Below are positions 5,861-63,840 of a stretch of DNA of 64,000 bases, one piece after another. Below the pieces are notes generated by a model, which did no database searches, was not told where the DNA came from, and worked only from the letters and a program-made list of their open reading frames with translations. Origin of the DNA: an uncultured Desulfarculaceae bacterium (lineage in GTDB: Bacteria; Desulfobacterota; Desulfocorpusculales; Desulfocorpusculum). The stretch covers positions 1,889 to 65,888 of the forward strand of contig CAZEPJ010000014.1 of NCBI GenBank assembly GCA_964514105.1, given 5' to 3'. Position numbers and translations under genes: made by a program. How positions within the stretch are numbered: position 1 is the first letter of the stretch; each line of letters begins with the position of its first letter.

Positions 5861-6072
5861 GGGATGGCTCAGGGCCTCGACCTATCCCCTCCCCGCCGCA
5901 CCGGAGATAACGTTCCTGTATGGCCCGGGGCCTTCGGGTTACCATTTGGTATCCTTCCATCGGGGCAGATCTCGGGAAATCAAGGGGTTGGATCTGGCAC
6001 GGGCGTTGCATTACCGTCTGTGCGGGCCTCGATTGCGGGCCATGAACCTCGGGGCAGCGAGGGGAGATGGAC

Positions 6073-35380: not shown

Positions 35381-36637
35381 ATGGGATACCAGCTGTGGAT
35401 CGGTCTCAAGTACTTGCGTGCCAAGCGAAGGCACGCGACCATCTCGGTCGTCACCTTTTTGTCGGTCCTGGGGGTGGGGGTCGGGGTCACGGCCCTCATC
35501 GTCGTGATTTCCGTGATCAACGGCTTCGAGGAGAACCTCAAGGAGAGAATCCTTGGGCTGACGGCCCATGCCCTCGTGTTTCAGCGGGGGCAGGAGATGA
35601 AGGACTGGGGGGAGGCCCGCCGGCAACTCCTGGAGGTGCCGGGCGTGGCCGGGGCCAGCCCCTTCATCGTCCGCGAGGTGATCCTCCAGGGAGCGACCAA
35701 GAGCGTGCAGGCGGTCATTCGCGCCGTGGACCCCCAGACCGTGGAAACCGTCATCCCGTTGGCCAAGATCCTTCAGGCGGGTCGCCTGTCCGATCTGAAT
35801 CCGCCCGACGGGGGCGACTATCCCGGGATCATCCTGGGCAAGGAACTCCTGAGAGAACTGGGGGCCGCCGTGGGCGACACGGTGGTCCTCGTTTCCCCCG
35901 AGGGCACTCTCACCCCATGGGGAAACCTTCCCAAATGGAAGCGGTTTCAGGTCAAGGGGTTTTTCGATGCGGGCTACTGGGACTTCGACTCCAAGGTGGG
36001 CCATATCTCCATCGCCGTGGCCCAGGATCTCTTTGAGATCCACGACCGGGTCACCGGGATCGAGCTGCGAATGCCCGACATCTACGCCGCTCCGCGGGTA
36101 CGCTTGAAGATTCACCAATCTCCCCTGGGCGCGAACTTCATCGTCCAGGACTGGACCCAGCTCAACCGCAACATCATGATCGCCCTGTCCATGCAGAAAC
36201 GGGTCATCTTCATCATCCTGCTGTGCATCGTGGGCGTGGCGGCGCTGCTCATCATCAGCATCCTGGTCATGATGGTGATGGAGAAGCAGAAGGAGATCGC
36301 CGTGCTCAAGGCCATGGGGGCCCGCTCCATGCACATCCTGTGCATCTTCGTCTGCCAGGGGCTCCTCATCGGGTCCGCGGGCACGGTCCTGGGATGCCTC
36401 GGAGGACTTCTCATCTCCTGGAATCTGGAGTGGATCGTCGGCGCCCTGGAACGAGCCCTGGACGTGCGCTTCCTCCCCGAGGACGTGTACTACGTGGGAC
36501 AGTTGACGTCCCGGGTCAGCCCGGCCGACCTGGGAATCATCGTGGTCGTCACCCTGCTTATCAGCGTGACCGCGAGCCTCTATCCGTCATGGCGCGCCTC
36601 CCGCCTGGACCCCGTGGAGGGGTTGCGGTACGAATGA
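35381..36637 (+). CDS. lolE: Lipoprotein-releasing system permease, LolC/LolE family (FtsX-like)
   Basis: Begins MGYQLWIGLKYLRAKRRHATISVVT. Four TM helices, a large periplasmic MacB-like domain, and the C-terminal FtsX motif. No lolD is adjacent. Confidence 0.8.
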   Translation: MGYQLWIGLKYLRAKRRHATISVVTFLSVLGVGVGVTALIVVISVINGFEENLKERILGLTAHALVFQRGQEMKDWGEARRQLLEVPGVAGASPFIVREVILQGATKSVQAVIRAVDPQTVETVIPLAKILQAGRLSDLNPPDGGDYPGIILGKELLRELGAAVGDTVVLVSPEGTLTPWGNLPKWKRFQVKGFFDAGYWDFDSKVGHISIAVAQDLFEIHDRVTGIELRMPDIYAAPRVRLKIHQSPLGANFIVQDWTQLNRNIMIALSMQKRVIFIILLCIVGVAALLIISILVMMVMEKQKEIAVLKAMGARSMHILCIFVCQGLLIGSAGTVLGCLGGLLISWNLEWIVGALERALDVRFLPEDVYYVGQLTSRVSPADLGIIVVVTLLISVTASLYPSWRASRLDPVEGLRYE

Positions 36638-36747
36638 GCCGGGGTCCCTGCCATCTTGACAACGCCTCAGTCATTTCATAGGCTCTTACCGCGTGCTGCC
36701 CCGACGATTCATTTCGGGCCGAGACTTGGCCGCGCACGGGTGCCCAG

Positions 36748-37236
36748 ATGACTGAGAACCGACGCAAGGAGATTCGCCGGGAGACGGACCGGGTCCTCGA
36801 CAAGCTCCTGGAGACCCTTCAGGTGGTGGAGAAGATCTCCAGGGGTGAGCAGGCCGACTTCACGGAGGCCTATGCCGACCTGGTCGGCCTCAAGAACCAG
36901 CTCGGCAGGCGGGAGGTGGACCGGCGAATCGGAGATGCCCTCTGCGCCACCATCGGCGCCATCGCGTCCAATATCGGCCACCCCGGGGAGACCAAGGAGC
37001 AACCTGCCGAGGAGCGATTGAGGCGCGTCCGCCTCACCAAGGTGAGCGGAGGCAAAGGCCACGCCACCATCGCCGGATGGGAGGAAGCGCCCCCGGAGGT
37101 GGGAAAGAGCTACCGGGTGTTTCAGGAAAACGGCAGCGTGGTGCGCACCTCCCCCATCACCCGTGTCTCGGAAGGGTTCGTTCAGACCCGCAACTCATTG
37201 TACCAACTGGAGATCCTTGGAGAGCAGACGGCGTGA
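36748..37236 (+). CDS. Hypothetical protein, second member of the conserved C-terminal-domain family
   Basis: Charged N-terminal region. The C-terminus (…RRVRLTKVSGGKGHATIAGWEE…SYRVFQENGSVVRTSPITRVSEGFVQTRNSLYQLEIL) aligns with the ORFs at 6073 and 47559. Confidence 0.5.
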   Translation: MTENRRKEIRRETDRVLDKLLETLQVVEKISRGEQADFTEAYADLVGLKNQLGRREVDRRIGDALCATIGAIASNIGHPGETKEQPAEERLRRVRLTKVSGGKGHATIAGWEEAPPEVGKSYRVFQENGSVVRTSPITRVSEGFVQTRNSLYQLEILGEQTA

Positions 37237-37262
37237 CCCCGCCGCGGTGCGGGCGCTCGCCA

Positions 37263-38312
37263 TCAGCCCGCCGCCGGTCGGTCCTTGAGGGACATCAGGG
37301 CCAGGGCGTTCTCCAGGGGCACGGACTTGGGGAAATCGCATCCCACGGTCAGGACGAACCCGCCGGCATCCCCCCACGCGCGGACGCAGTCCCGGGCCTC
37401 GGCCTCCACCTCCTGCGGCGTCCCCGAGAGGAAGGCCCCCGTGGGCGATACGTTGCCCGCCACGCAAACCTTTCCGCCCAGGACCCGGCGCGCCAGCCCC
37501 AGATCCACCTTGGACTCCAGGCTGAAGCAATCGGGGGCCATCTCCAGGACATCCCCCAGGATCCGCCCCGTGTCCCCGCAGATGTGCATGGAGCAGTGCT
37601 TCCCCCTGGCCTTCACCCTGTGGCACAACGCCTGAAGATGGGGTTTGGCCACAGTCCTGAAAGTCTGGGGCGAGATCAGGTCGCCCGAGGCCACGGGGTC
37701 GGAGAAGTTCACCCCCGCGATGTCCGGATGATCCAGGATGGGCTCCACCATGCCCCAGAGAAACTCGGTGCACACGGACAGCAGCCTCCCCAACCCATCG
37801 GGATCCTCCAAGGTCGCCATCATCACCGCGTCCGTGCCGGCGATGCGCGCCGCCGTGGTCAGGGGGCCCCATTGGGTAGGCAGGATCATGGCGTCCCTGC
37901 CGATGGCGTCCGCCACCAGGTGATGGGCCTCCGTGAGGCGTCCCATGAGGGGATGGCCCAGGGCCTGGTCCGGAGCAAGGCGGTCCACCTTTCCGACGGC
38001 CGGGATGGCCGGGCCCAGAAGGCGGGGTGTGTCCGATGATCGGTCCTCGATGGGGCAGCCCAGGAGGTGGGCCGGATAGTTGAGGAAGCCGGCGCCCGTC
38101 CAGATCAGGTCGTGGCCCAGTCGTTCATGGGCCTTCACGAACACCGCTGCCATCTCCCGGGGGTCCCGGACGATCTCGGCAAAGGTCTTTCGGGCTTGAT
38201 GGACGTACCACTCCCCCCCGGCGATGAGGGTCACGGGCACCCTCGGAGGCCGACGGCCGGCAAAGGCTTCGGCAACCACATCCTTCCCGCACATGGTCGA
38301 CGCACTACCCAT
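37263..38312 (-). CDS. Uroporphyrinogen decarboxylase (URO-D) family protein, MtaA/CmuA-like methyltransferase type
   Basis: URO-D family motifs (…FLNYPAH…, …SDPVASGDLISP…, …MHICGD…). Confidence 0.8.
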   Translation of the reverse strand: MGSASTMCGKDVVAEAFAGRRPPRVPVTLIAGGEWYVHQARKTFAEIVRDPREMAAVFVKAHERLGHDLIWTGAGFLNYPAHLLGCPIEDRSSDTPRLLGPAIPAVGKVDRLAPDQALGHPLMGRLTEAHHLVADAIGRDAMILPTQWGPLTTAARIAGTDAVMMATLEDPDGLGRLLSVCTEFLWGMVEPILDHPDIAGVNFSDPVASGDLISPQTFRTVAKPHLQALCHRVKARGKHCSMHICGDTGRILGDVLEMAPDCFSLESKVDLGLARRVLGGKVCVAGNVSPTGAFLSGTPQEVEAEARDCVRAWGDAGGFVLTVGCDFPKSVPLENALALMSLKDRPAAG

Positions 38313-38336
38313 TCAGCTTGTCCCCCCAACGGCCTG

Positions 38337-38376
38337 AAAAAAAAAACAGGGAAACCCATCATGGATTTCCCAGCAC
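38337..38376 (-). terminator. Rho-independent terminator after ssrA on the minus strand
   Basis: On the minus strand GGGAAA-N11-TTTCCC followed by T10 (plus-strand A10 at 38337-38346), directly after the tmRNA 3' CCA. Confidence 0.5.
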
Positions 38377-38387
38377 CGCTTTGAGGT

Positions 38388-38739
38388 TGGTGGAGGCGGC
38401 GGGAGTCGAACCCGCGTCCGGAAACCTTCAGCCAAGGCATCTACATACATAGCTCCTGTTTTGATCTCACCCGCCTCGGCTCCCAGGAGCAGGATCCTCG
38501 GCGGGCCAGCCTACTTGAATCTCGCCGCATCCCCTGCAGGCGTCAGGGATTTGGCCATCCCGCTGTTCGACGTCCTGTCCGGCCCCGCGGGCTGAACCGG
38601 AAGGACGTGGCCTTAAGCGGCCAGGGCGTAGTCGTAGTTGTCGGCGACTAACTTTGAGCCCTATCTGTTTAACGAGGGGATAGGAACCTCGGCATGCAGC
38701 CTTGACCTCAACTGTCCCCGTCGAAACCTTTTCGCCCCC
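38388..38739 (-). ncRNA. ssrA: tmRNA (ssrA, transfer-messenger RNA)
   Basis: The 5' end GGGGGCGAAAAGGTTTCGACGGGG and the 3' end …GGACGCGGGTTCGACTCCCGCCGCCTCCACCA (T-arm, acceptor stem with G3:U, CCA). Internal tag ORF AGUC|GCC GAC AAC TAC GAC TAC GCC CTG GCC GCT TAA, giving tag ADNYDYALAA. Length 352 nt. Confidence 0.85.
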
Positions 38740-43234: not shown

Positions 43235-45697
43235 CTAGGGAAGGGGGGCCGTCGCCACGCCCCCGTTGCTGCTGCGCACGGTGACCCAGGGGGGTTTGAC
43301 CAGCACGTTCTTGAACTTGCGAGAATGACTCCGGGACTTCTTCTTGTACAACAGGTTCCCGAGGCCGTCAGCCCACAGGGTCACGCTTCCAGGGGTTGCG
43401 TTGGACTTGGCCCTGACCGTGAGGACCCTCTTCTTGTACTTGACTTGGGTCACGGTCACGGTGTCCGCCGCGTCCCCCACCCTCAGGGCCACCGACGCCG
43501 CAGATCCCCAAGCGCCGGTATGATCCCGGGCCCGAACCTGGAGGGTGTAGCTTCCGTTGGGCCACCCCGACACATCCACCTGGGTCCCGACGGATTCGAC
43601 CGACCCGCCCAACGCCCCGTCCAGGGGCGCCATGGCCGCCCCCGGCCCCTCCCTGGGATCCACCCACCACTCCACTTCCGCGATGGGCGAGCCGCCCGGG
43701 AGACCGGCCGTGGCGCTCAGGACCACCAGGGTCTGGCCGAGGGTGGGATTGGGCGACGCCGCCACGTCGAAGACGGTGGGCCCCGTGCGAGCGGGCGCCA
43801 CTGCGGGCCAAAGCCCGCCATGGGCCAGGCCGTACGATTCCCATTGCACAGGCACCTGGAATAGAGAGGGCATGCCCGCCGCGGCATCGTCAAAGGCCTC
43901 CAGCCATCCGCCCCCGCCCTTGCCCGGCCCCACCAGCACCTCATCTCGTCCGTCGCCGTCGAGATCTCCGGCGGCTGGATGTGTCTCGCCGGCCAGGCGA
44001 TTGTAGTCCGTCGCGCTCAAGGTGATCCAGGCCAGATGGGTCGGGTAGCCGTATGCGTAGTCCATGACCGCCACCCTCCCGCCGCCCCGTTTCCCCATGC
44101 CCAGAAGGATCTCGGCCCTGCCGTCCCCATCCAGGTCGGCGCAGGCGGGCCAGCTCTCTCCGTTGGCTGAGTTGTATTCCGCCCAGTCAATGGCCCCCCA
44201 GGCCAGGGGAAGGGCATCGCGGGTGACCACGAAGGCGCCGCCGGGCAGCGCGGCATTGCCCGATACCGGGCCCAGACCAAGGACCACCTCCCGCTCGCCG
44301 TCTCCGTCCACGTCCCCCGCAGCCGGCCGCACCTCGCCGCTGGCCGTGTTGTAGTCGTCCCAGTCCAACAAGAGCCACTCTCTGTGGGTGACAGCCCCTG
44401 CGGCATACTGAAAGACCTCGACGCGCCCCCCGCCCCCGGCCCCCAACCCTATGAGGATCTCGTCACGGCCGTCTCCGTCCAGGTCGCCGCAGGCCGGCCA
44501 GGTCTCCCCGTTGGCGGCGTTGTACTCGGGCCAGTTCACCTGTCCCCAGGCCAGATGGTTGTACTGGCTGTCCAGAATCAAGAACATGCCGTTGGGTATG
44601 GGCGGAGGCCCGGCTTCCCCCCGTCCCAGGCCCACCACGATCTCGGATTGCCCATCACCGTCCAGATCTCCCACAGCCACCCGGGCCTCCCCGCTCAGGG
44701 CCTCGTACTCGGGCCAGCCCAGTCGCAGCCAGAACTCATGGAATAGATCCTCACTCAGGAAATCGATGACTCCGCCCGCCGGGGGATACGGACCCAGGCC
44801 GGCGATGACCCGCCCATAGCCCACCGCCGACGACGCCGTCACCGTCACCGCCACCGTGGCGCTCCCCGTCCCCCCCCGGTTGTCCGTCACCGTCAGCCTC
44901 GCCGTATAACTCCCCGCCGAAACATACGTGTGGGACGGGTTCTGAACACTGGATGTGCCCCCGTCCCCAAACGTCCACGCATACGACGCAATGCTCCCGT
45001 CCGGGTCGCTCCCGCTCCCCGTGAACGCCACCGTCAGGGGCGAGGTCCCTGAAATCGGCGTCCCCGAGGCCGTCGCAATGGGCAGCTGGTTGGGCGCCGT
45101 CACCGTCACCGCCACCGTGGCGCTCCCCGTCCCCCCCCGGTTGTCCGTCACCGTCAGCCTCGCCGTATAACTCCCCGCCGAAACATACGTGTGGGACGGG
45201 TTCTGAACACTGGATGTGCCCCCGTCCCCAAACGTCCACGCATACGACGCAATGCTCCCGTCCGGGTCGCTCCCGCTCCCCGTGAACGCCACCGTCAGGG
45301 GCGAGGTCCCTGAAATCGGCGTCCCCGAGGCCGTCGCAATGGGCAGCTGGTTGGGCGCCGATGCTGTCGTATGGGAGATCTCTTCCGAAAACCCGCTTTG
45401 AAGGGCCTCGTAGTAGGCCTTCACTGCGAAGAAATACTGCTGTCCGTCGGCCAGATCCGTGAAGGTATAACTGGTGGTCTTGCCCACATCCAGGCTGAAG
45501 GTGTAGTTGCCGCTGGAGGTCCCGCGAAAGACGATGTATCCCGAGATCGGCTCGGGATTCGGGTCCCAGGCGAGCGTGACCGGGTCAGCCCCCCGGGCCT
45601 CCCAGGGCATGGCCCCGGCCAAAGCCAGGAGCGCCAGGGCTGCTCCCCCGAGCCGGCGGCCCCACAGGTCCCCAACACGGCGAAGAAGAGATCTCAT
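43235..45697 (-). CDS. Large secreted protein of 820 aa: FN3-like domain, two identical PKD domains, FG-GAP/VCBS-type repeats, and a C-terminal beta-rich region
   Basis: Signal peptide with RR. VTLAWDPNPEPISGYIVFRGTSSGNYT FN3 signature. Two 87-aa PKD units identical at both protein and DNA level. Five or more repeats of …GDLDGDG(R/Q)(D/A/S)E(I/V)… (FG-GAP-like). Confidence 0.8.
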   Translation of the reverse strand: MRSLLRRVGDLWGRRLGGAALALLALAGAMPWEARGADPVTLAWDPNPEPISGYIVFRGTSSGNYTFSLDVGKTTSYTFTDLADGQQYFFAVKAYYEALQSGFSEEISHTTASAPNQLPIATASGTPISGTSPLTVAFTGSGSDPDGSIASYAWTFGDGGTSSVQNPSHTYVSAGSYTARLTVTDNRGGTGSATVAVTVTAPNQLPIATASGTPISGTSPLTVAFTGSGSDPDGSIASYAWTFGDGGTSSVQNPSHTYVSAGSYTARLTVTDNRGGTGSATVAVTVTASSAVGYGRVIAGLGPYPPAGGVIDFLSEDLFHEFWLRLGWPEYEALSGEARVAVGDLDGDGQSEIVVGLGRGEAGPPPIPNGMFLILDSQYNHLAWGQVNWPEYNAANGETWPACGDLDGDGRDEILIGLGAGGGGRVEVFQYAAGAVTHREWLLLDWDDYNTASGEVRPAAGDVDGDGEREVVLGLGPVSGNAALPGGAFVVTRDALPLAWGAIDWAEYNSANGESWPACADLDGDGRAEILLGMGKRGGGRVAVMDYAYGYPTHLAWITLSATDYNRLAGETHPAAGDLDGDGRDEVLVGPGKGGGGWLEAFDDAAAGMPSLFQVPVQWESYGLAHGGLWPAVAPARTGPTVFDVAASPNPTLGQTLVVLSATAGLPGGSPIAEVEWWVDPREGPGAAMAPLDGALGGSVESVGTQVDVSGWPNGSYTLQVRARDHTGAWGSAASVALRVGDAADTVTVTQVKYKKRVLTVRAKSNATPGSVTLWADGLGNLLYKKKSRSHSRKFKNVLVKPPWVTVRSSNGGVATAPLP
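44834..45355. repeat. Perfect tandem duplication (2 x 261 bp) inside the large secreted-protein gene, encoding two identical PKD domains
   Basis: Positions 44834-45094 and 45095-45355 are identical base for base (checked at anchors: GCCGTCACCGTCACCGCC at 44835 and 45096, GCTCCCC at 44861 and 45122). The period is a multiple of 3. Confidence 0.85.
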
Positions 45698-55369: not shown

Positions 55370-55398
55370 TTGGGATTTGCGGCCTTTGGCGTTACAAT
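55370..55398 (+). promoter_or_regulatory. Candidate sigma70 promoter (TTGGGA-17-TACAAT) upstream of the exosortase operon
   Basis: TTGGGA at 55370-55375 and TACAAT at 55393-55398, ~95 nt upstream of the exosortase ATG. Confidence 0.3.
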
Positions 55399-55490
55399 CT
55401 CAGGGTCGGCCGACCTGGCCCATCCGGAGCGGCCCGGCCCTTGCCCGGAGGACCCGGCGCCCGCGGGCCCGGTCGCCCAGAAGGATGCCC

Positions 55491-56414
55491 ATGCAGGTCA
55501 CGGCGCACGTTGACAAGAGGGACGTGCTCTTTCTCGCCTTCACGGCCGCCTTCGCCCTCGTCTTTCTGGATCTCTGGCGGGAGTTCTTCTCCTTCCTCCT
55601 GGGCTCGGGTCTGTACAACTACATGGTCCTCATCCCGGGGGTCAGCGCCTATCTCCTGATCTCCGACCGGCGGCGCCTCCGGGCCGCGGCCCGCAGCGCC
55701 GTGCCCCTGGGCGCAGCCCTGGCAGCGGCCGGGGCCCTGGGTCTGGCGGCGGCCCAGGCCCAGGGCGCATGGCCGGCCCCCGACGACCGTTTCTCCCTGG
55801 TGGGGGTCTCTTTGCTCCTGATCTGGGTCGGCGGGTTCGCGGCCATGTACGGGCCCAGGGCCCTGCGCGCGGCCATCTTCCCCCTGCTGTTCCTCCTCTT
55901 CATGGTTCCCGTTCCCGGCGGCGCCCTGGAAGGGGTGATCCGGTTTCTGCAGGTGGGGTCCACCGAGGCGGCCCACGCCCTTTTCGCCCTGAGCGGCGTC
56001 CCGGTCCTCCGGGAGGGGTTCGTGTTTCACCTGCCCGGCCAGAGCATCGAGGTGGCCCCCGAGTGCAGCGGCATCCGCTCGGGGATCTCCCTGGTGGTGA
56101 CCTCCGTCCTGGCCGGCCACCTGTTCCTGCGCACCCTGGGGGGCAAGCTCGCCATGGCCGTGGCCACCCTCCCCGTCACCATGTTCAAGAACGGGGTGCG
56201 GATCGTCTCTCTCTCCCTCCTGGGGGTGTACGTGGATCCGCGCATCCTGCAAAGCGAACTGCACCGGAGCGGGGGCATCCCCTTCTTCGTGGTGGCCCTC
56301 CTCATGATGGTCCCCGTGTGGTGGGGGCTCCGGACCCTGGAGAAGCGACTGGGCGGCAAGGAGCCCGGCGCGCCGGCCGGGGGCACGGCGAAGGGGCCGG
56401 GAGGGGCGGAATGA
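55491..56414 (+). CDS. xrtA: Exosortase, XrtA-like
   Basis: Eight predicted TM helices. Catalytic-region motifs …APECSGIRSG… (conserved Cys) and …NGVRIVSL… (conserved Arg). Its TGA overlaps the prsK ATG (ATGA). Confidence 0.8.
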   Translation: MQVTAHVDKRDVLFLAFTAAFALVFLDLWREFFSFLLGSGLYNYMVLIPGVSAYLLISDRRRLRAAARSAVPLGAALAAAGALGLAAAQAQGAWPAPDDRFSLVGVSLLLIWVGGFAAMYGPRALRAAIFPLLFLLFMVPVPGGALEGVIRFLQVGSTEAAHALFALSGVPVLREGFVFHLPGQSIEVAPECSGIRSGISLVVTSVLAGHLFLRTLGGKLAMAVATLPVTMFKNGVRIVSLSLLGVYVDPRILQSELHRSGGIPFFVVALLMMVPVWWGLRTLEKRLGGKEPGAPAGGTAKGPGGAE

Positions 56415-58537
56415 GCCTGAATGCCGCCCTCTCCCTGGTGGGGGCCTCCCTGGGGGCTTCCGCGGCCCTCTTGGCCCTGTGGCGCCACCCCCGGGGCTTC
56501 GTGCACCGGGTCTTCGCCCTTGGGATGGGGGCCCTGGGGGCCGAGGCGGTCCTCCTGGCCCTGGCCCACGAGGCCCCGTCGCCCGGCGGCGTTCTGGACC
56601 TGGAGCGGTGGCGGGCCCTGGTGGCGGCCCTCTTGCCGGGGATCTGGCTCCTGTTCAGCCTGAGCTTCGCCCGGGATCAGCACCGGGAGTTCCTCCGCCA
56701 ATGGCGATGGGTCATCGCGGGGGCCTTTGCGGCCCCCCTGGCCCTGGCCGCGGCGGGGCGGCCCTGGCTCCTGGGCCCCGAGGCCGTCAGGGACCCCGAG
56801 ACGGGCTGGGTGGTGTTCCTGGGGTGGGCGGGGTCGGCCCTGGCCGTCGTCGCCGTGCTGCTCACGGTGCTGGTGCTCATGAACCTGGAGCGGACCCTCC
56901 GGGCGGCCACGGGCCACGGCCGCTGGCAGCTCAAGTTCATGGTCCTGGCCGTGGGCGGGCTCCTGGCCCTCCGCGTGTACACGGGCAGCCAGGCCCTCCT
57001 GTTTCACAGCGTCAGCATCCCGCTTCTGCTGGTGCACGGCCTTGCGCTGATCCCGGCGGCGGCGTTGATTTTCCTCGGCTTCCAGAGGGCCCGGGTCATG
57101 GCCCTGAGCCTGCGGGTGTCCCACAGCGTGCTGCAGGGATCCGTGACCCTGATCATCGTGGGCGCCTACTTCCTGGGGGTGGGCCTCCTGGCCAAGCTGC
57201 TCTTGTGGCTCGACGCGGCCCAGGACCTCTCCTCCCGGGTCCTGTTCATCTTCCTGGCGCTGTGCGGGCTCATGCTGCTTTTGCTGTCCGACCGGGTACG
57301 CTACCGCACGAGGCGCTTCGTCGCCCGGCACTTCCACAGGAGTCGACACGACTATCGCCGCATCTGGAGCGACTTCTCCCGGCGCACCGCAGCCCTGGTG
57401 GACCCGGACGAGGTGTGCCGGGAGGTGGCGGGGATCCTCTCCGAGGCCTTCGAGGCCCTGGCTGTCCATCTGTGGATGGCCGAGGGCGACGGGGCGCGGC
57501 TGCGCCTGGCCGCCTCCACGGCGCAGGGAGCAGGGCTCCTTCGGGACCTCGAGGGCATCCGGGCGGCGGTCCAGGACGCGGCCGGGGCCCTGGACGACCG
57601 GGATGGGCCCGCGGACCTGGCCGACCCCCGTGCCCAGTGGGCCCTGGAGCTCATGGCGCGCCGCGGGGAGGCGTTGGACGCGGCCGGGATCCGCTACTGC
57701 GTGCGGCTCGCCGCGGGCGATGAGCGGGTGGGCCTGATCAGCCTGGGCAAGCGGGTCAGCGACGCGCCCATGGACGCCGAGGACATGGACCTCCTCAAGA
57801 CCCTGGCCGACCAGACGGCGGCCACCCTCCTGAACCGGAGACTGGCCGAACGGCTCAGGCAGGCCAGGGAGATGGAGGCCTTCCAGTCCATGTCGGCCTT
57901 CATGCTCCACGACCTCAAGAACCTGGGCAACAAGCTGTCGCTCACCGCCCAGAACTTCCCCGTCCACTTCGAGAACCCCGATTTCCGCAGGGATGCGGCC
58001 CGGGTGATGGAGCAAAGCGTGGAGAAGATCAAGGGGCTGTGCGGCCAGCTCGCCCTCCTGCGGCAGACCCTGGAGCTCCACCGATCCAGGACGGACCTCA
58101 ACGCACTGGTCCGGCAGGCCGTTGGCGAGCTGGACGGGCTGCTCGGTGCCCGCGTGGAGCTGGATTTGGGGGAGCTTCCCCCCCTCGACCTCGACCGTGG
58201 GCAGCTCCAAAAGGCCCTGGTCAACCTCATCGCCAACGCCAACGACGCCGTGGGGAAGGCCGGGGAGATCCGGGTCAGCACCCGCCTCGAGGATGGGGCC
58301 GCGCTCCTCTCGGTGTGCGATAATGGGTGCGGCATCCCCCGGGCGTTCCTGGAGAAGTCCCTGTTCCGTGCCTTCCGGACCACCAAGAAGCAGGGAATGG
58401 GGATCGGCCTGTTCCATGCCAAGGCCATCGTGGAGGCCCACGACGGAAGGATCGAGGTGGAAAGCGAGGAGGGCAAGGGAAGCCGTTTCAGGATCGTCCT
58501 GCCGCTGGAAAGCAAGCGCCAGGCCGGTGAGAGGTGA
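56411..58537 (+). CDS. prsK: PEP-CTERM-system sensor histidine kinase PrsK
   Basis: Multi-TM N-terminal region, GAF-like middle, H-box …FMLHDLKNLGNKL…, and an HATPase_c domain (…NLIANANDAV…DNGCGIP…GMGIGLF…). Confidence 0.8.
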   Translation: MSLNAALSLVGASLGASAALLALWRHPRGFVHRVFALGMGALGAEAVLLALAHEAPSPGGVLDLERWRALVAALLPGIWLLFSLSFARDQHREFLRQWRWVIAGAFAAPLALAAAGRPWLLGPEAVRDPETGWVVFLGWAGSALAVVAVLLTVLVLMNLERTLRAATGHGRWQLKFMVLAVGGLLALRVYTGSQALLFHSVSIPLLLVHGLALIPAAALIFLGFQRARVMALSLRVSHSVLQGSVTLIIVGAYFLGVGLLAKLLLWLDAAQDLSSRVLFIFLALCGLMLLLLSDRVRYRTRRFVARHFHRSRHDYRRIWSDFSRRTAALVDPDEVCREVAGILSEAFEALAVHLWMAEGDGARLRLAASTAQGAGLLRDLEGIRAAVQDAAGALDDRDGPADLADPRAQWALELMARRGEALDAAGIRYCVRLAAGDERVGLISLGKRVSDAPMDAEDMDLLKTLADQTAATLLNRRLAERLRQAREMEAFQSMSAFMLHDLKNLGNKLSLTAQNFPVHFENPDFRRDAARVMEQSVEKIKGLCGQLALLRQTLELHRSRTDLNALVRQAVGELDGLLGARVELDLGELPPLDLDRGQLQKALVNLIANANDAVGKAGEIRVSTRLEDGAALLSVCDNGCGIPRAFLEKSLFRAFRTTKKQGMGIGLFHAKAIVEAHDGRIEVESEEGKGSRFRIVLPLESKRQAGER

Positions 58538-60054
58538 TGGACATGGCTCGCGAATCCGCATCCCCGCCCCCTTCCCCCCCGGACAGACCCAAGCTGCTGG
58601 TGGTGGAGGACGACGAGGAGCTGCGCTCCCAGATGAAGTGGGCCCTGGGCCGGGAGTACCACGTCTTGACGGCCGAGGACCGGGTCGGCGCCCTGGAGAT
58701 CCTGAGGGCCGAGGAGCCCGCCCTGGTGACCCTGGACCTGGGGCTGCCGCCCGACCCGGCGGGCGCCGAGGAGGGCTTTCGGACCCTGACCGACCTCCTG
58801 GCCCTGACCCCCCACGCCAAGGTGGTGGTCATCACCGGCCGGGCGGAGCGGGAGAACGCCCTGAGGGCCGTCGCCCAGGGGGCATACGACTACTTCTCCA
58901 AGCCCATCGAGATCCAGGACCTCCGGGTGGTCCTGGGGCGGGCCCTGTACCTGCACGGCGTGGAGGCGGAGAACCGGCGGCTCAGGGCCGCCTCCTCCCA
59001 GGACGCCTTCGAGGGGATGCTGGGCGCCAGCCAGCCCATGCAGGAGGTGTTCGCCAAGATCCGCAAGGTCGCCACCACCGAGGCCCCCGTGCTCCTGGTG
59101 GGCGAGAGCGGCACGGGCAAGGAGCTGGCCGCCAGGGCCATCCACCGGCTGGGTCCCCGGGGCCGGGGGCCGTTCGTGGCCATCAACTGCGGGGCCATCC
59201 CCGAGACGCTCCTGGAAAGCGAGTTGTTCGGCCACGAGAAGGGCTCTTTCACGGGCGCCCACGTGCAGAGAAAGGGGCGGGTGGAGATGGCCCAGGGCGG
59301 GACGCTCTTTTTGGACGAGGTGGGCGAGCTGTCCCCCATGCTCCAGGTCAAGCTCCTGCGGTTCCTCCAGGAACAGCGAATCGAGCGGGTGGGCGGGAGG
59401 GAGGAGATCGCCATCGACGCGCGGGTCATGGCGGCCACCAACGCGGACCTCCAGAAGGCCATGGAGGAGGGGCGCTTCCGCCAGGACCTGTACTACCGGC
59501 TGGGCGTGGTGGTCATCGCCCTCCCCCCCCTGCGGGAGCGCCCCGGGGACGTGGAGCTCCTGGCCAGGGCCCTGGTGGAGAAGTTCTCGGTCGAGGGCCG
59601 CAAGCGCATAACGGGATTCACCGCCGCGGCGCTCAAGGCCATGGTCCAGCACAGGTGGACGGGCAACGTGCGGGAGCTGGAAAACCGCCTCAGGAGAGCG
59701 GTGATCATGGCGGAGGGGACCCGGCTCACCCCCGAGGACCTGGAGCTGGCCTCCAAGTACGCCAGGTACGAGGGGCTGGGGCTCAGGGAGGCCAGGGAGG
59801 GCCTGGAGCGGGAGTTGATCCTCCAGGCCGTGGCCCACAACCAGGGCAATCTCACCCAGGCCGCCGCAGACCTGGGCATCAGCCGGCCGACCCTCTACGA
59901 TCTCATGGACATGCGGGGGATGGGGAATGGCGGGGGGTTGGGGGGGGGGGGGGGGGGGGGGGCGGTGGGGGAAGAGAAGGTCAGGGGGACCCGGGGCGAC
60001 GGACACCCATCGGGGGAGAGACCATGTCGAATGCGGAAAGCAAGGCGGCGGTGA
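58534..60054 (+). CDS. prsR: PEP-CTERM-box sigma54-dependent response regulator PrsR (Fis-type HTH)
   Basis: Receiver domain (LLVVEDDEELR…LDLGLPP), sigma54 AAA+ domain (GESGTGKE…GSFTGA…), and a C-terminal HTH (…LTQAAADLGISRPTLYDLMDM). The ORF then runs through a 23-G homopolymer, which adds a Gly-rich tail up to the stop at 60052-60054. Confidence 0.85.
   Translation: MMDMARESASPPPSPPDRPKLLVVEDDEELRSQMKWALGREYHVLTAEDRVGALEILRAEEPALVTLDLGLPPDPAGAEEGFRTLTDLLALTPHAKVVVITGRAERENALRAVAQGAYDYFSKPIEIQDLRVVLGRALYLHGVEAENRRLRAASSQDAFEGMLGASQPMQEVFAKIRKVATTEAPVLLVGESGTGKELAARAIHRLGPRGRGPFVAINCGAIPETLLESELFGHEKGSFTGAHVQRKGRVEMAQGGTLFLDEVGELSPMLQVKLLRFLQEQRIERVGGREEIAIDARVMAATNADLQKAMEEGRFRQDLYYRLGVVVIALPPLRERPGDVELLARALVEKFSVEGRKRITGFTAAALKAMVQHRWTGNVRELENRLRRAVIMAEGTRLTPEDLELASKYARYEGLGLREAREGLERELILQAVAHNQGNLTQAAADLGISRPTLYDLMDMRGMGNGGGLGGGGGGGAVGEEKVRGTRGDGHPSGERPCRMRKARRR
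59940..59962. repeat. Homopolymeric poly-G tract (23 consecutive G) at the 3' end of prsR, 61 nt upstream of the prsT start
   Basis: Read directly: …ggcggggggttg + g23 + cggtggggg…. Reading the 23 G in the prsR frame gives L+7xGly+A. Confidence 0.9.
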
Positions 60055-62387
60055 GGGGCCATGACGCCTCCGGGCGGCTCGTGACCGGCGGTCCGCGGCG
60101 TCCCGGGGACAAGGGACGCGGGCTTCGGTTCATCCTCGTGGCCAGCGCCGCTTTGGTCCTGGCGCTGGCCGGGTGCGGCGACGCCCGGTCCAAGAAGGCC
60201 AGGCACCTGGAGCGGGGGGACGCTTATTTCAAGGAGGGCAAGGTCAACGAGGCGGTCATCGAGTTTCGAAACGCGGTCAAGATGGACCCCAAGGACCCCC
60301 GGGCCCACCATTGGCTGGGCCTGTCCTATCTGCGGAGCGGCAATTTGCGGGACGCCTTCTCGTCCCTGACCGAGGCCGTCCGTCTCGACGAGAACCTGCT
60401 CGACGCCCAGGCCCAGCTGGGCCGCATGCTCCTTCTCGCGCGGGACCTCCCCAAGGCGCGGGAGAAGGCCGATCTCATCCTGGGAAAGGACCCCCGGCAC
60501 GTGGAGGCCCGTCTCCTCATGGGGGACATCCACCTGGCGGAGGGCAAGCCGGACCAGGCCCTGGGGGAGCTGCTGGCGGCCGTGGACCTCGACCCCAAGC
60601 GGGCGGAGCTGGAGATAAAGCTGGCGGGCGTCTACACCCTCAAGGGCGATTTCCCCAAGGCCGAGGAGGCCCTCAAGGAGGCCTTGAACAAGGACGAGAA
60701 ATCCATCCAGGCCCGCCTGGCCCTGGCCAACTTCTACCTGGGGCGGAACCGGCCGCAGGACGCGGAGCGGGAGTTCGGCAGGGCCCTGGAGCTGGAGCCC
60801 AGGAACCTGGCCGTGGCGGCGAGCCTCGCCAACCTGCACCTGCGTGCCAACCGGCCCGAGGAGGGCGAGCGGGTCCTTCTGGCCGCGGCCGATCGGTCGC
60901 CCAAGGAGGCCGGCCCCCAGCTGGCTCTGGGGGACTACTACACCGCCTGGCACAAGCCCGACAAGGCCGAGGCGGCTTACAGGCGAGCCATCGAGGTGGA
61001 TCCCCGCAACACCCCGGGCCGGCAGAAGCTGGCGGCCCTTCATCTGAACCGAGGGGAGCGGGAGGCGGCGGAGAAGTACGTGGACGAGCTCCTCAAGATC
61101 AACCCCCAGGACCTGGACGGCCTGATCCTCCGCGGCCGGCTGCTCCTGAGCCGCAGGCAGCACGAGGAGGCCGTGGCCCAGTTCCAGAGGGTGGTCAAGG
61201 AGGCCCCCCAGAACCCCATGGCCCACTACTTCCTCGGCCTGGCCTTGGTGGGCAAGGGGGATGTCCAGCAGGCCAAGGGCGCCCTTTTGAAATCCGTGGA
61301 GCTCAATCCCAGGCTGGGGGAGGCGCGGATGCTGCTGGTGGACCTGCACCTGCGGGCCGGGGCCGCCGACGAGGCGCTGGCCGAGGCGCGCAGGATGGCG
61401 GAGACCGACGGCCGCAGCTGGCGCGCCCAAGCCACCCTGGGGCGGGTGCACCTGGCCCGGCGGGACGGCGACAGCGCCAAGAAGGCGTTCGAGGAAGTGA
61501 CCCGCCTGGCCCCCCAAAACCCCCTGGGCTATCACTACCTGGGGCGGCTGGAACTGGCGGAAAAGCGGTACCCGGAGGCGTCCGCCATGTTCGAGAAGGC
61601 CCTGGCCCTGAACCCCGGCGACGCGGGCTCCATGCGCATGCTCGCGTACGCCCATGTGCTGCAGGACGACCGGGAGGGGGCCCTCCGGCGGGTCGATCAG
61701 CAGCTGGGCAAGGCCCCGGACAACCCGGCCTTCCACCAGATCAAGGGGAACCTGCTTTTCGACCAGGGAAGGCGCAAGGAGGGGGAGCAGAGCCTCAAGC
61801 GGGCCATCGAGCTGGCCCCCGGCGACCCGGTCTACTACGAGAACCTGGCCTCCATCTACGCCATGCAGAACCGCCTGGACGAGGCCGTGGCCGAGTTCAA
61901 GGCGGCGGTGGAGAAGGATCCCAGGTCGGTGCGGGCCTGGATGTCCCTGGGCGTGCTGCACCAGCAGAGGAAGGCCCTGGACGCTGCCAGGGAGGCGTAC
62001 AGGAAGGTCCTGGGCCTGGAGCCCAACTTCGTTGCTGCAGCCAACAATCTGGCCTGGCTCGAGGTGGAGCACGGGGGCAACGTGGACGTGGCGCTGGGCC
62101 ATGCCCAGCGGGCCAAGGAGGCGGCCCCCGACCACCCGTCCGTGGCCGACACCCTGGGGTGGATCTACTACCACAAGAAGGTCTACGCCACGGCCCTGGG
62201 GCACCTGAGCGAGGCGGCGGAGAAGATGCCGGACAACCCCACCGTCCGCTTCCACCTGGGCATGACCCACGCCAAGATGGGAAAGAAGGAGGACGCCCGC
62301 CGGGAGCTGGAGCGGGCCCTGGAGATCAACGGTGCCTTCCCCGAGGCCCAGCGCGCCCGGGATGCCCTGAAGGAGCTGGGGAACTGA
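60024..62387 (+). CDS. prsT: PEP-CTERM-system TPR-repeat lipoprotein PrsT
   Basis: RBS GGGGGAGAG before the ATG (MSNAESK…). Lipobox LALAGCGD. About 18 TPR-like repeats along 788 aa. Confidence 0.8.
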   Translation: MSNAESKAAVRGHDASGRLVTGGPRRPGDKGRGLRFILVASAALVLALAGCGDARSKKARHLERGDAYFKEGKVNEAVIEFRNAVKMDPKDPRAHHWLGLSYLRSGNLRDAFSSLTEAVRLDENLLDAQAQLGRMLLLARDLPKAREKADLILGKDPRHVEARLLMGDIHLAEGKPDQALGELLAAVDLDPKRAELEIKLAGVYTLKGDFPKAEEALKEALNKDEKSIQARLALANFYLGRNRPQDAEREFGRALELEPRNLAVAASLANLHLRANRPEEGERVLLAAADRSPKEAGPQLALGDYYTAWHKPDKAEAAYRRAIEVDPRNTPGRQKLAALHLNRGEREAAEKYVDELLKINPQDLDGLILRGRLLLSRRQHEEAVAQFQRVVKEAPQNPMAHYFLGLALVGKGDVQQAKGALLKSVELNPRLGEARMLLVDLHLRAGAADEALAEARRMAETDGRSWRAQATLGRVHLARRDGDSAKKAFEEVTRLAPQNPLGYHYLGRLELAEKRYPEASAMFEKALALNPGDAGSMRMLAYAHVLQDDREGALRRVDQQLGKAPDNPAFHQIKGNLLFDQGRRKEGEQSLKRAIELAPGDPVYYENLASIYAMQNRLDEAVAEFKAAVEKDPRSVRAWMSLGVLHQQRKALDAAREAYRKVLGLEPNFVAAANNLAWLEVEHGGNVDVALGHAQRAKEAAPDHPSVADTLGWIYYHKKVYATALGHLSEAAEKMPDNPTVRFHLGMTHAKMGKKEDARRELERALEINGAFPEAQRARDALKELGN

Positions 62388-62640: not shown

Positions 62641-63333
62641 TCACCTCTTGCGGTGCCGCATCCTGTTCCCTGCAACCCCCACTGCGAGCAACCCCAGCCC
62701 CAAGAGCATGAGGGTCCCTGGCTCAGGGACATACACCAAGCAGAGCTGGGATTGAGCATACGTCCATTTGCTTCCATCCGGCCACATCAGGTTCATGACC
62801 CTCACGGCATATCCATTCTCGCCAGTCCAGCTGCCGTGGTAAAGTGCATCATTATAGAGAGCCAAAGCAAGCCCGGATAAGCTTGAAGGAGCATACTCCC
62901 CCTCCAGGGCCCAGATGGCGATCTGGACCGCATTGGCGAGGTCATTCGAATACTGGTACCCCAGATCCCCGCGGATGTAGTGATAATAGAGCCAGGCTGC
63001 CGCCCCTGAAAGAGGATCAGGATTTCCCCCACCCTGCCCACCCTCCACCGCACTGTCGGAGATGCTCTCGATGGTGAACGACGACGAGTAGTCTATGTAT
63101 TCATTCTTCTCTATGCAGAAGGATATGAAATCGGAAAACAACGCGCTTTGCGACTTGATCCAGAACTCCCCTCCGTTCGTCGTCCCGTAGGTCCCGTCTG
63201 ACAGCTGGACCTTTGTGCCCACCGCACCCTCTGGGACCGGGATCAAAGGATACGACCCCGCATCGGCGACCCACAGGCTCGCGGCCAGCAGACCAACCAG
63301 CAGCGTATATACCGTCTTTCGCCCCATCGTCAT
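62641..63333 (-). CDS. PEP-CTERM sorting-domain protein, a secreted exosortase substrate of unknown function
   Basis: RBS GGGAGGG, signal peptide, and the C-terminal sorting signal VPEPGTLMLLGLGLLAVGVAGNRMRHRKR (PEP motif, TM helix, basic tail). The gene sits in a visibly AT-richer segment than its surroundings. Confidence 0.8.
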   Translation of the reverse strand: MTMGRKTVYTLLVGLLAASLWVADAGSYPLIPVPEGAVGTKVQLSDGTYGTTNGGEFWIKSQSALFSDFISFCIEKNEYIDYSSSFTIESISDSAVEGGQGGGNPDPLSGAAAWLYYHYIRGDLGYQYSNDLANAVQIAIWALEGEYAPSSLSGLALALYNDALYHGSWTGENGYAVRVMNLMWPDGSKWTYAQSQLCLVYVPEPGTLMLLGLGLLAVGVAGNRMRHRKR

Positions 63334-63840
63334 CACACCCTCCCACATGTCGTCGCTGGAATCGATCCTTCAGCACGTCGTTGTTTTCTTAGCCAGAACC
63401 GTACCGCTTCACGCCACACTGACAACCACACCCCCCGGCTCGCAATTAACCAATTGTTTTTATTAAGCTTGGATGGCAAGCACGGGCTGGAAGCAGATCT
63501 CAGGCTGGCGCCCATCGCTCCGAGAAAGGATCGAGCTCTGGTCAAGTCCTCCGACGTCCAAAAGGCCCAAGGACCGCACGCGTCGCCATTATGAAAAATA
63601 ATAACAATAGGATAGCATCCGCCGAATCGCCCGAAGACCTCGTAAACTTTTCCGACATCCGCGATCTTGAGGGGGGCGGCTCAGCCTGGCCGGCGTCCCC
63701 CTCACACCCCTGCCCCCACCCCCTCGCCAAAGCCGGGCACCCGCGCCTCGTCCGTTCCCCATCATCAAGACCAAGCCCCATGGGTCCTTTTGTGGTCCGG
63801 CCGGGATCACTTGATCCCTCAGCGCCGCCGGCCCCCGGTG

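Follow-up and report, generated by a model that had tools for sequence, protein, structure and literature searches.

A stretch of 64,000 nt from an uncultured Desulfarculaceae bacterium (contig CAZEPJ010000014.1 of assembly GCA_964514105.1; the whole stretch is referred to below as the window) carries a run of 23 consecutive G residues at the boundary between prsR, which encodes a sigma-54 activator of the PEP-CTERM system, and prsT, which encodes a lipoprotein. The reading that we favor, to which we assign a probability of only about 40%, is that this tract is a genuine G:C mononucleotide microsatellite, uncertain in length and hypermutable, that has erased the prsR stop codon and scrambles the reading frame where prsR meets prsT. 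We lean towards seeing in it a by-product that is tolerated, not a switch that evolved. That a long G run is present in the assembled sequence, and that it is far beyond chance, is observed directly; its exact length of 23 is unreliable, and we infer the hypermutability of the tract, its origin and its effect on PrsT.

The poly-G tract and the end of prsR

Read directly from the plus strand, the run occupies positions 59940-59962 (C23 on the minus strand), with TT before it and C after it. A census of homopolymers across the window agrees with the first-pass annotation, which had set a run of 23 G against others of only about 10 nt. The next-longest homopolymers are C10 at 49299, A10 at 38337 and three 9-mers, and no other run exceeds 10 nt. 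Given the composition of the window (67.2% GC, with G alone at 32.6%), about 3e-7 runs of at least 23 G are expected in 64 kb if bases are drawn independently at the window frequencies, while homopolymers of 8-10 nt are about as numerous as composition predicts. The flanks of the tract, counted without the tract itself, contain 49.5% G versus the window mean of 32.6% (s.d. 5.9 per 100 nt), an excess of nearly 3 s.d. From their sequence, these flanks look like an older tract that was broken up by point changes.

The domains of PrsR are complete upstream of the run. Positions 1-444 of the 445 in the TIGR02915 model match PrsR residues 20-462, and the receiver, AAA+ and HTH_8 domains have all come to an end by about nt 59922, which leaves 18 nt to the tract. 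Translation and profile both bear out the earlier proposal that the tract is read as a Gly tail behind the helix-turn-helix (HTH) domain. This tail is 45 residues long and consists of seven Gly (all GGG) from the tract followed by AVGEEKV...RRR, and it ends at a TGA stop (60052-60054) that falls 31 nt inside prsT. The tract had also been described as lying between prsR and prsT. It does sit at the gene boundary, and the quoted distance of 61 nt to the prsT ATG (60024) is correct, but the assembled prsR open reading frame (ORF; 58537-60054) contains the tract and overlaps prsT.

We compared this C-terminus with those of other PrsR proteins in a collection of 5.8 billion proteins. One protein in the collection, P0001 (503 residues), is identical; it forms a 90% cluster by itself and comes from one NCBI contig of 73,969 bp, whereas the identity of the next match is just 71%. 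The 119 other homologues end in 'SRPTLYELMEKLGIGKEK*' or similar, mostly 3-10 residues past LGI, and most are 450-490 residues long. A few have longer tails, and a Gly run at the C-terminus is found in none of the 119. In this assembly, a TTG codon abutting the tract lies close to the position at which the homologues stop. Once the tract is removed, the distance from this codon to the prsT ATG is 60 nt, and the prsR-prsT spacer measures 33 nt (L007) and 57 nt (L008) in relatives in which the two genes are adjacent.

The DNA beyond the tract does not resemble coding sequence. The bodies of prsR and prsT show strong codon periodicity, with GC contents at the third and second codon positions (GC3 and GC2) of 0.97 and 0.43 in prsR and 0.93 and 0.41 in prsT, and the 61 nt that separate the tract from the prsT ATG show such periodicity in no frame. 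The PrsR tail therefore appears to be a read-through of a former spacer. The simplest reading of the sequence is that prsR has lost its normal stop and now runs across the tract and into what was once intergenic DNA.

To follow the reading frames, we re-translated the junction with tract lengths (n) of 8 to 31 G. As annotated earlier, prsR is in frame 1 and prsT in frame 0, and the prsT frame is open upstream across the tract (ORF 58122-62387). Lengths of n = 2 mod 3, including 23, give the present 45-residue tail. Lengths of n = 0 mod 3, reached by gaining 1 nt or losing 2, fuse PrsR in-frame to PrsT in a polypeptide of about 1283 residues, just as the first-pass annotation had predicted. Lengths of n = 1 mod 3, reached by losing 1 nt or gaining 2, produce another tail (RWGKRRSGG...EGP) of about 48 residues that ends at a stop at 60062-60064, 10 nt further on. 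Both non-fusion frames thus lengthen PrsR by 45-50 residues, and PrsR is shortened at no length from 8 to 31. Since all PrsR domains precede the tract, the tract is unable to switch PrsR off; a change in length affects only the tail or the fusion, and no domain is lost. The expectation that other lengths would alter the tail or truncate the protein therefore holds for the tail and fails for truncation. Nor is the open prsT frame upstream of its ATG a sign of design. Stops make up about 2.2% of random codons at the composition of the window, so about 64% of 20-codon stretches would be free of them. A normal prsR stop hidden in another frame was looked for and ruled out, the earliest stop in any frame being that at 60052.

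The tract has no counterpart in the sequences that we could compare. Orthologous prsR-prsT junctions had been recommended for comparison, and none of those in the loci L001-L012 contains it; ten of these loci (L003-L012) came from a scan of genome contigs with the PrsR alignment, in which the matches listed were mostly other NtrC-family genes. The gene order prsK-prsR-prsT is the same in L002. Across 82 related loci totaling 660 kb, the longest G or C run is 11 nt. A scan of JGI metagenomes for an SRPTLY-type HTH with a run of at least 12 G within the next 20-50 nt gave six matches, all unrelated and mostly eukaryote-like low-complexity DNA, and a scan of the same metagenomes for the exact flanks with a tract up to 15 nt longer or shorter between them gave none. 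Look-ups of the exact products (PrsT from ATG 60024 and from GTG 60051, PrsR from each of three starts, and P0001) revealed no other assembly with the junction. Apart from P0001, the protein collection contains no PrsR above 71% identity, and it contains no PrsT above 37%.

Two observations on the related loci may be recorded here. In the closest relative (L001, GCA_040960995.1, with a PrsR 71% identical), small genes of the PF05635 family (23S rRNA intervening-sequence proteins) flank prsR on both sides, at 300-719 and 2191-2556, one of them standing between prsR and prsT. In a Rokubacteria metagenome-assembled genome (MAG; GWA2_70_23), a G11 run (L082, 5191-5201) lies within another NtrC-family sigma-54 activator, where it encodes AAGGGA in the linker just before the HTH. 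Judged from this placement, a frameshift at that run would remove the DNA-binding domain, a more classical geometry for phase variation.

A proposed hypermutable prsR-prsT boundary

The tract appears to stand where prsR ends in relatives, at the stop codon and the short spacer behind it. Most likely, it arose from a purine- and G-rich 3' end of prsR through G-extending substitutions, in which GnT becomes Gn+1, combined with replication slippage; a substitution hotspot of this kind has been documented (PMC12344412). The normal prsR stop would have been lost during this growth, leaving PrsR to be read through the tract and the old spacer. In Campylobacter jejuni, poly-G mutates at 1e-4 per division at G7 but at 4e-3 at G11, with a shift towards deletions (PMC3401435). 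With mutability climbing so steeply with length, a G23 tract should be heterogeneous in any population, and from this known behavior of long poly-G, the length of the present tract is probably heterogeneous too.

A tract of this kind would randomize the frame in which ribosomes leave prsR, with three outcomes set by n mod 3. At n = 2 mod 3, ribosomes would terminate at a GTGA in which the prsR stop overlaps a GTG in the prsT frame. At n = 1 mod 3, they would terminate 10 nt further on, and at n = 0 mod 3 they would enter prsT directly and produce the PrsR-PrsT fusion. The main effect would then be stochastic variation in the translation of prsT, which would be coupled, occluded or fused, as occlusion or exposure of the prsT ribosome-binding site varies with the frame. 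The fraction of PrsR that bears a membrane-targeting appendage would vary as well. The Shine-Dalgarno-like sequence of prsT is GGGGGAGAG at 60012-60020, reported five nt before the ATG. The GTGA overlap resembles those at the two upstream junctions of the operon, but it is weak evidence that the present frame is the 'intended' one, as it needs only a G before the TGA.

Several points weigh against a hypermutable microsatellite with these consequences. The deletion bias of long G tracts, measured in one system, makes a stable G23 unexpected unless it is recent or maintained. The tract is also the sole run above 10 nt in 64 kb, unlike what is found in genomes that use contingency loci. The gene prsT has a good Shine-Dalgarno sequence and an ATG of its own at 60024, so that ribosomes may translate it largely without regard to prsR. 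By accident alone, a GTGA overlap would arise with a probability of about 1 in 3. The junction is known from one assembly. Finally, the protein collection lacks the PrsT of this contig, its best match there being 37% identical. As PrsR (P0001) and HemE (P0241) of the same 73,969-bp contig are both present there, the source annotation may treat the region as defective, and it may have missed prsT or labelled it a pseudogene.

Should reads confirm that the tract is long and varies in length, it would be one of the rare hypermutable homopolymers to be documented in a high-GC, non-pathogenic bacterium that has not been cultured, and it would lie in the master regulatory operon for PEP-CTERM/exosortase-dependent exopolysaccharide (EPS) and floc formation. 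It would extend contingency-locus biology past host-associated, low-GC pathogens and would provide a natural case of the stochastic fusion of two genes. If they do not, the junction becomes a cautionary example for MAGs, in which a homopolymer creates a spurious 45-residue tail and a gene overlap in the annotation.

Alternative explanations for the tract

The tract could instead be an adaptive contingency locus, kept by selection, at which slipped-strand mispairing reversibly toggles the PEP-CTERM/EPS module and so hedges between flocculating and free-living cells. We regard this as unlikely, though it has several attractions. The tract is far beyond the slippage threshold and exceeds the roughly 7-8 or more G or C residues that characterize simple-sequence-repeat contingency loci. 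Its host is a regulator of surface and EPS functions, with exosortase, Wza-like, Wzz-like and PEP-CTERM genes adjacent, and the three frames have three distinct outcomes. As in the poly-G/C contingency loci of Campylobacter, Neisseria and Helicobacter (such as cj1139 of C. jejuni), a G:C mononucleotide tract lies in or at the end of an ORF, and a change of 1 nt in either direction shifts translation between frames. Poly-G tracts that split and join ORFs also have a precedent in cj0031/cj0032 of C. jejuni, where, as here, one frame merges two annotated ORFs into a single polypeptide (PMC4889913).

The differences from these systems are nonetheless considerable. The tracts of these contingency loci are 8-12 nt long and lie at conserved positions, with 11-29 such loci in a genome (PMC3401435). 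They cut functional domains, so that one frame is OFF. Here, a single 23-nt tract, shared with no relative, lies past all domains and links two functionally distinct genes. PrsR is inactivated in no frame, the tract is conserved in none of the homologues or orthologous junctions examined, and its solitary occurrence within 64 kb contrasts with the multiplicity expected of such loci. Set against the 8-12 nt typical of tuned switches, 23 nt would bring near-constant scrambling instead of heritable states. Another parallel is the phase variation of FlgR, and of its kinase FlgS, in C. jejuni. FlgR is an NtrC-family sigma-54 regulator that varies through homopolymers, and its gene, like prsR, encodes a REC-AAA+-HTH activator and carries a slippage-prone run (PMC3930126). 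The FlgR tracts are short A/T runs in the body of the coding sequence, where a frameshift yields a truncated, inactive protein and ON/OFF switching has been demonstrated. The PrsR tract, unlike those of FlgR, follows the HTH and is unable to inactivate the regulator.

It is distinctly unlikely that the organism has no long G run at all and that the tract arose from two-color Illumina poly-G or from a low-complexity k-mer mis-join. Such an artefact would agree with the single metagenome-type contig that is the source of P0001, with the failure of the look-ups and of the exact-flank scan to find an independent assembly of the junction, with the abolition by the tract of the normal stop of a highly conserved gene, and with the absence of this PrsT from the protein database. 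Poly-G from dark cycles, however, occurs only at the 3' ends of reads; from the chemistry, it should yield, on one strand, sequences of the form A-polyG and polyC-B and never A-polyG-B. This tract is internal, between syntenic prsR and prsT flanks in the correct orientation, which is not the pattern of a poly-G read artefact. The flanks are themselves rich in G with interrupted G runs, and prsR still has no stop when the tract is deleted. Internal artefactual runs also seem uncommon in comparable MAG loci, where 660 kb contain no G or C run above 11 nt. Away from the junction, the contig is base-for-base equal to an independent Logan assembly. The contig concerned (L089, SRR12686701_872870) corresponds to positions 36289-38413 of the window with 100% nucleotide identity over 2125 nt, a 10-nt homopolymer included. 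Together with the expected gene order, this exact match indicates that the assembly is sound elsewhere. The caution that the run might be an artefact is apt for its exact length and mostly not for its existence.

The sequence run behind the Logan contig, SRR12686701, appears to hold reads of this organism; a search for it in the literature gave no match. A JGI contig encodes an identical partial HemE (P0361). Within the window, a tmRNA gene lies at 38388-38739 on the minus strand (Rfam RF00023, 198 bits; tag peptide ADNYDYALAA), and directly 3' of it is an A10/T10 run (38337-38346) that is exact in the independent Logan contig.

It is very unlikely that the tract has a structural role, in which a G-quadruplex (G4) would make RNA polymerase or ribosomes pause, or would stabilize the transcript, and would in this way fix the expression of prsR relative to prsT irrespective of tract length. 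A G4 had been raised as a possibility in the first-pass annotation. The sequence does have the four or more G runs of at least 3 nt, with short loops, that mark such motifs, and prediction returns a strong, multi-layer G4 across 59932-59971. Folding of 59925-59995 with the G4 option of ViennaRNA gives -104 kcal/mol versus -6.5 kcal/mol without it, and no rival Watson-Crick fold competes (z = +1.66). The G residues are also on the coding strand, with 61 nt separating them from the prsT start downstream. Against this, the window contains 49 canonical G4 motifs, so G4 potential is commonplace in it, and a perfect homopolymer is not what a functional G4 requires, about 15-20 nt of patterned G runs being enough. 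No relative conserves the tract, and it has no Rfam match.

The conserved LPPL motif of the AAA+ domain is encoded by a C-rich sequence, CCCTCCCCCCCC at 59519-59530, that is complementary to the tract 410 nt downstream on the same mRNA. Given the GC3 of 0.97, this pairing is probably incidental.

Diversity might also be generated without any change in the DNA. A homopolymer that is longer than the RNA-DNA hybrid and is made up entirely of GGG codons is slippery in principle for both RNA polymerase and tRNA-Gly. As in other cases of recoding at slippery runs, by transcriptional realignment on a homopolymer or by -1/+1 frameshifting of ribosomes ahead of a stimulatory structure, G23 could in principle give all three frames from one DNA length. 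A free-living, high-GC environmental bacterium might even maintain so long a G tract for bet-hedging. Slippage by DNA polymerase, RNA polymerase and ribosomes together would then continuously divide expression between separate PrsR with translationally coupled PrsT, PrsT that is uncoupled, and a PrsR-PrsT fusion tethered to the membrane, and would diversify EPS and floc formation within a clone; we consider this highly improbable. To our knowledge, the bacterial cases of recoding involve A/T runs or X XXY YYZ heptamers that are conserved and of which both products are functional. The prsR-prsT junction has the slippery run but, in contrast to programmed recoding, shows neither conservation among homologues nor coding periodicity downstream.

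Three further candidates were rejected: a promoter-spacing mechanism (no sigma-70-like or sigma-54-like promoter and no intrinsic terminator lies near the tract), a conventional structured RNA (Rfam gives no match, and shuffled sequence folds more strongly) and stalling at rare codons (GGG accounts for 42% of the Gly codons here).

The surrounding PEP-CTERM operon

The locus is a typical PEP-CTERM/exosortase EPS locus as described by Haft et al. in 2006 (PMC1569441). Gene identities were assigned with NCBIfam equivalog models at their curated cut-offs, and the products of prsK, prsR and prsT all score above them, with an exosortase and a PEP-CTERM protein encoded nearby, as expected of the PrsK/PrsR/PrsT module. 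The three genes stand in the canonical order beside the exosortase, the EPS export genes and the PEP-CTERM protein, as in the described module; unlike other PrsR sequences, whether described or in the database, this one alone has the homopolymer. Upstream of the exosortase gene lie genes for a Wza-like exporter, a Wzz/GNVR protein and a ParA/MinD-like ATPase. The features of the junction and of the operon are collected in Table 1.

Table 1 Positions of the tract, its immediate surroundings and the neighboring genes in the window.
Feature	Position	Strand	Remarks
Exosortase (XrtA/XrtC-like)	55377-56414	+	First gene of the operon; TIGR02602, 120 bits (cut-off 105.6)
prsK, histidine kinase	56411-58537	+	TIGR02916, 362 bits (cut-off 300); start inferred from ATGA overlap
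prsR, as assembled	58537-60054	+	505 residues from ATG 58537; TIGR02915, 611 bits (cut-off 503)
G-rich block, G6-TT-G23-C-GG-T-G5	59932-59971	+	Degenerate; 36 of 40 bases are G; predicted G-quadruplex site
TTG (Leu) codon	59938-59940	+	Abuts the tract; 1-2 codons from the stop position of homologues
G23 homopolymer	59940-59962	+	Read directly; longest homopolymer of the window by 13 nt
Putative former spacer, read through by prsR	59963-60023	+	GC by codon phase 0.80/0.75/0.62
prsT, TPR lipoprotein	60024-62387	+	Lipobox LALAGC; TIGR02917, 427 bits (cut-off 312)
GTGA overlap	60051-60054	+	prsR stop TGA 60052-60054 (G23 frame only) on a GTG in the prsT frame
PEP-CTERM protein	62641-63348	-	Neighbor of the module

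The exosortase gene and prsK share a 4-nt stop/start overlap (ATGA, 56411-56414), and prsK and prsR overlap at GTGATG (58534-58539). These overlaps along exosortase-prsK-prsR, and possibly on to prsT, point to one translationally coupled operon, and the ATGA indicates that the true start of prsK is at 56411 and not at the first start of ORF 55769. Alternative starts for prsR are GTG 58534 and ATG 58543. The N-terminus of PrsT aligns with the lipoboxes of its homologues and continues with RSPEAKKARHLERG; a further in-frame GTG start is present at 60051.

Upstream of the EPS export genes, the minus strand encodes an 820-residue protein (43235-45697) with fn3, PKD and FG-GAP repeats, which may belong to the same locus as a surface protein or adhesin. 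Sigma-54-like sites with at most two mismatches are no more numerous in the window than expected by chance, and the only site among them with no mismatch, a perfect match to the sigma-54 promoter consensus, is TGGCACGGGCGTTGCA at 5995-6010 on the plus strand.

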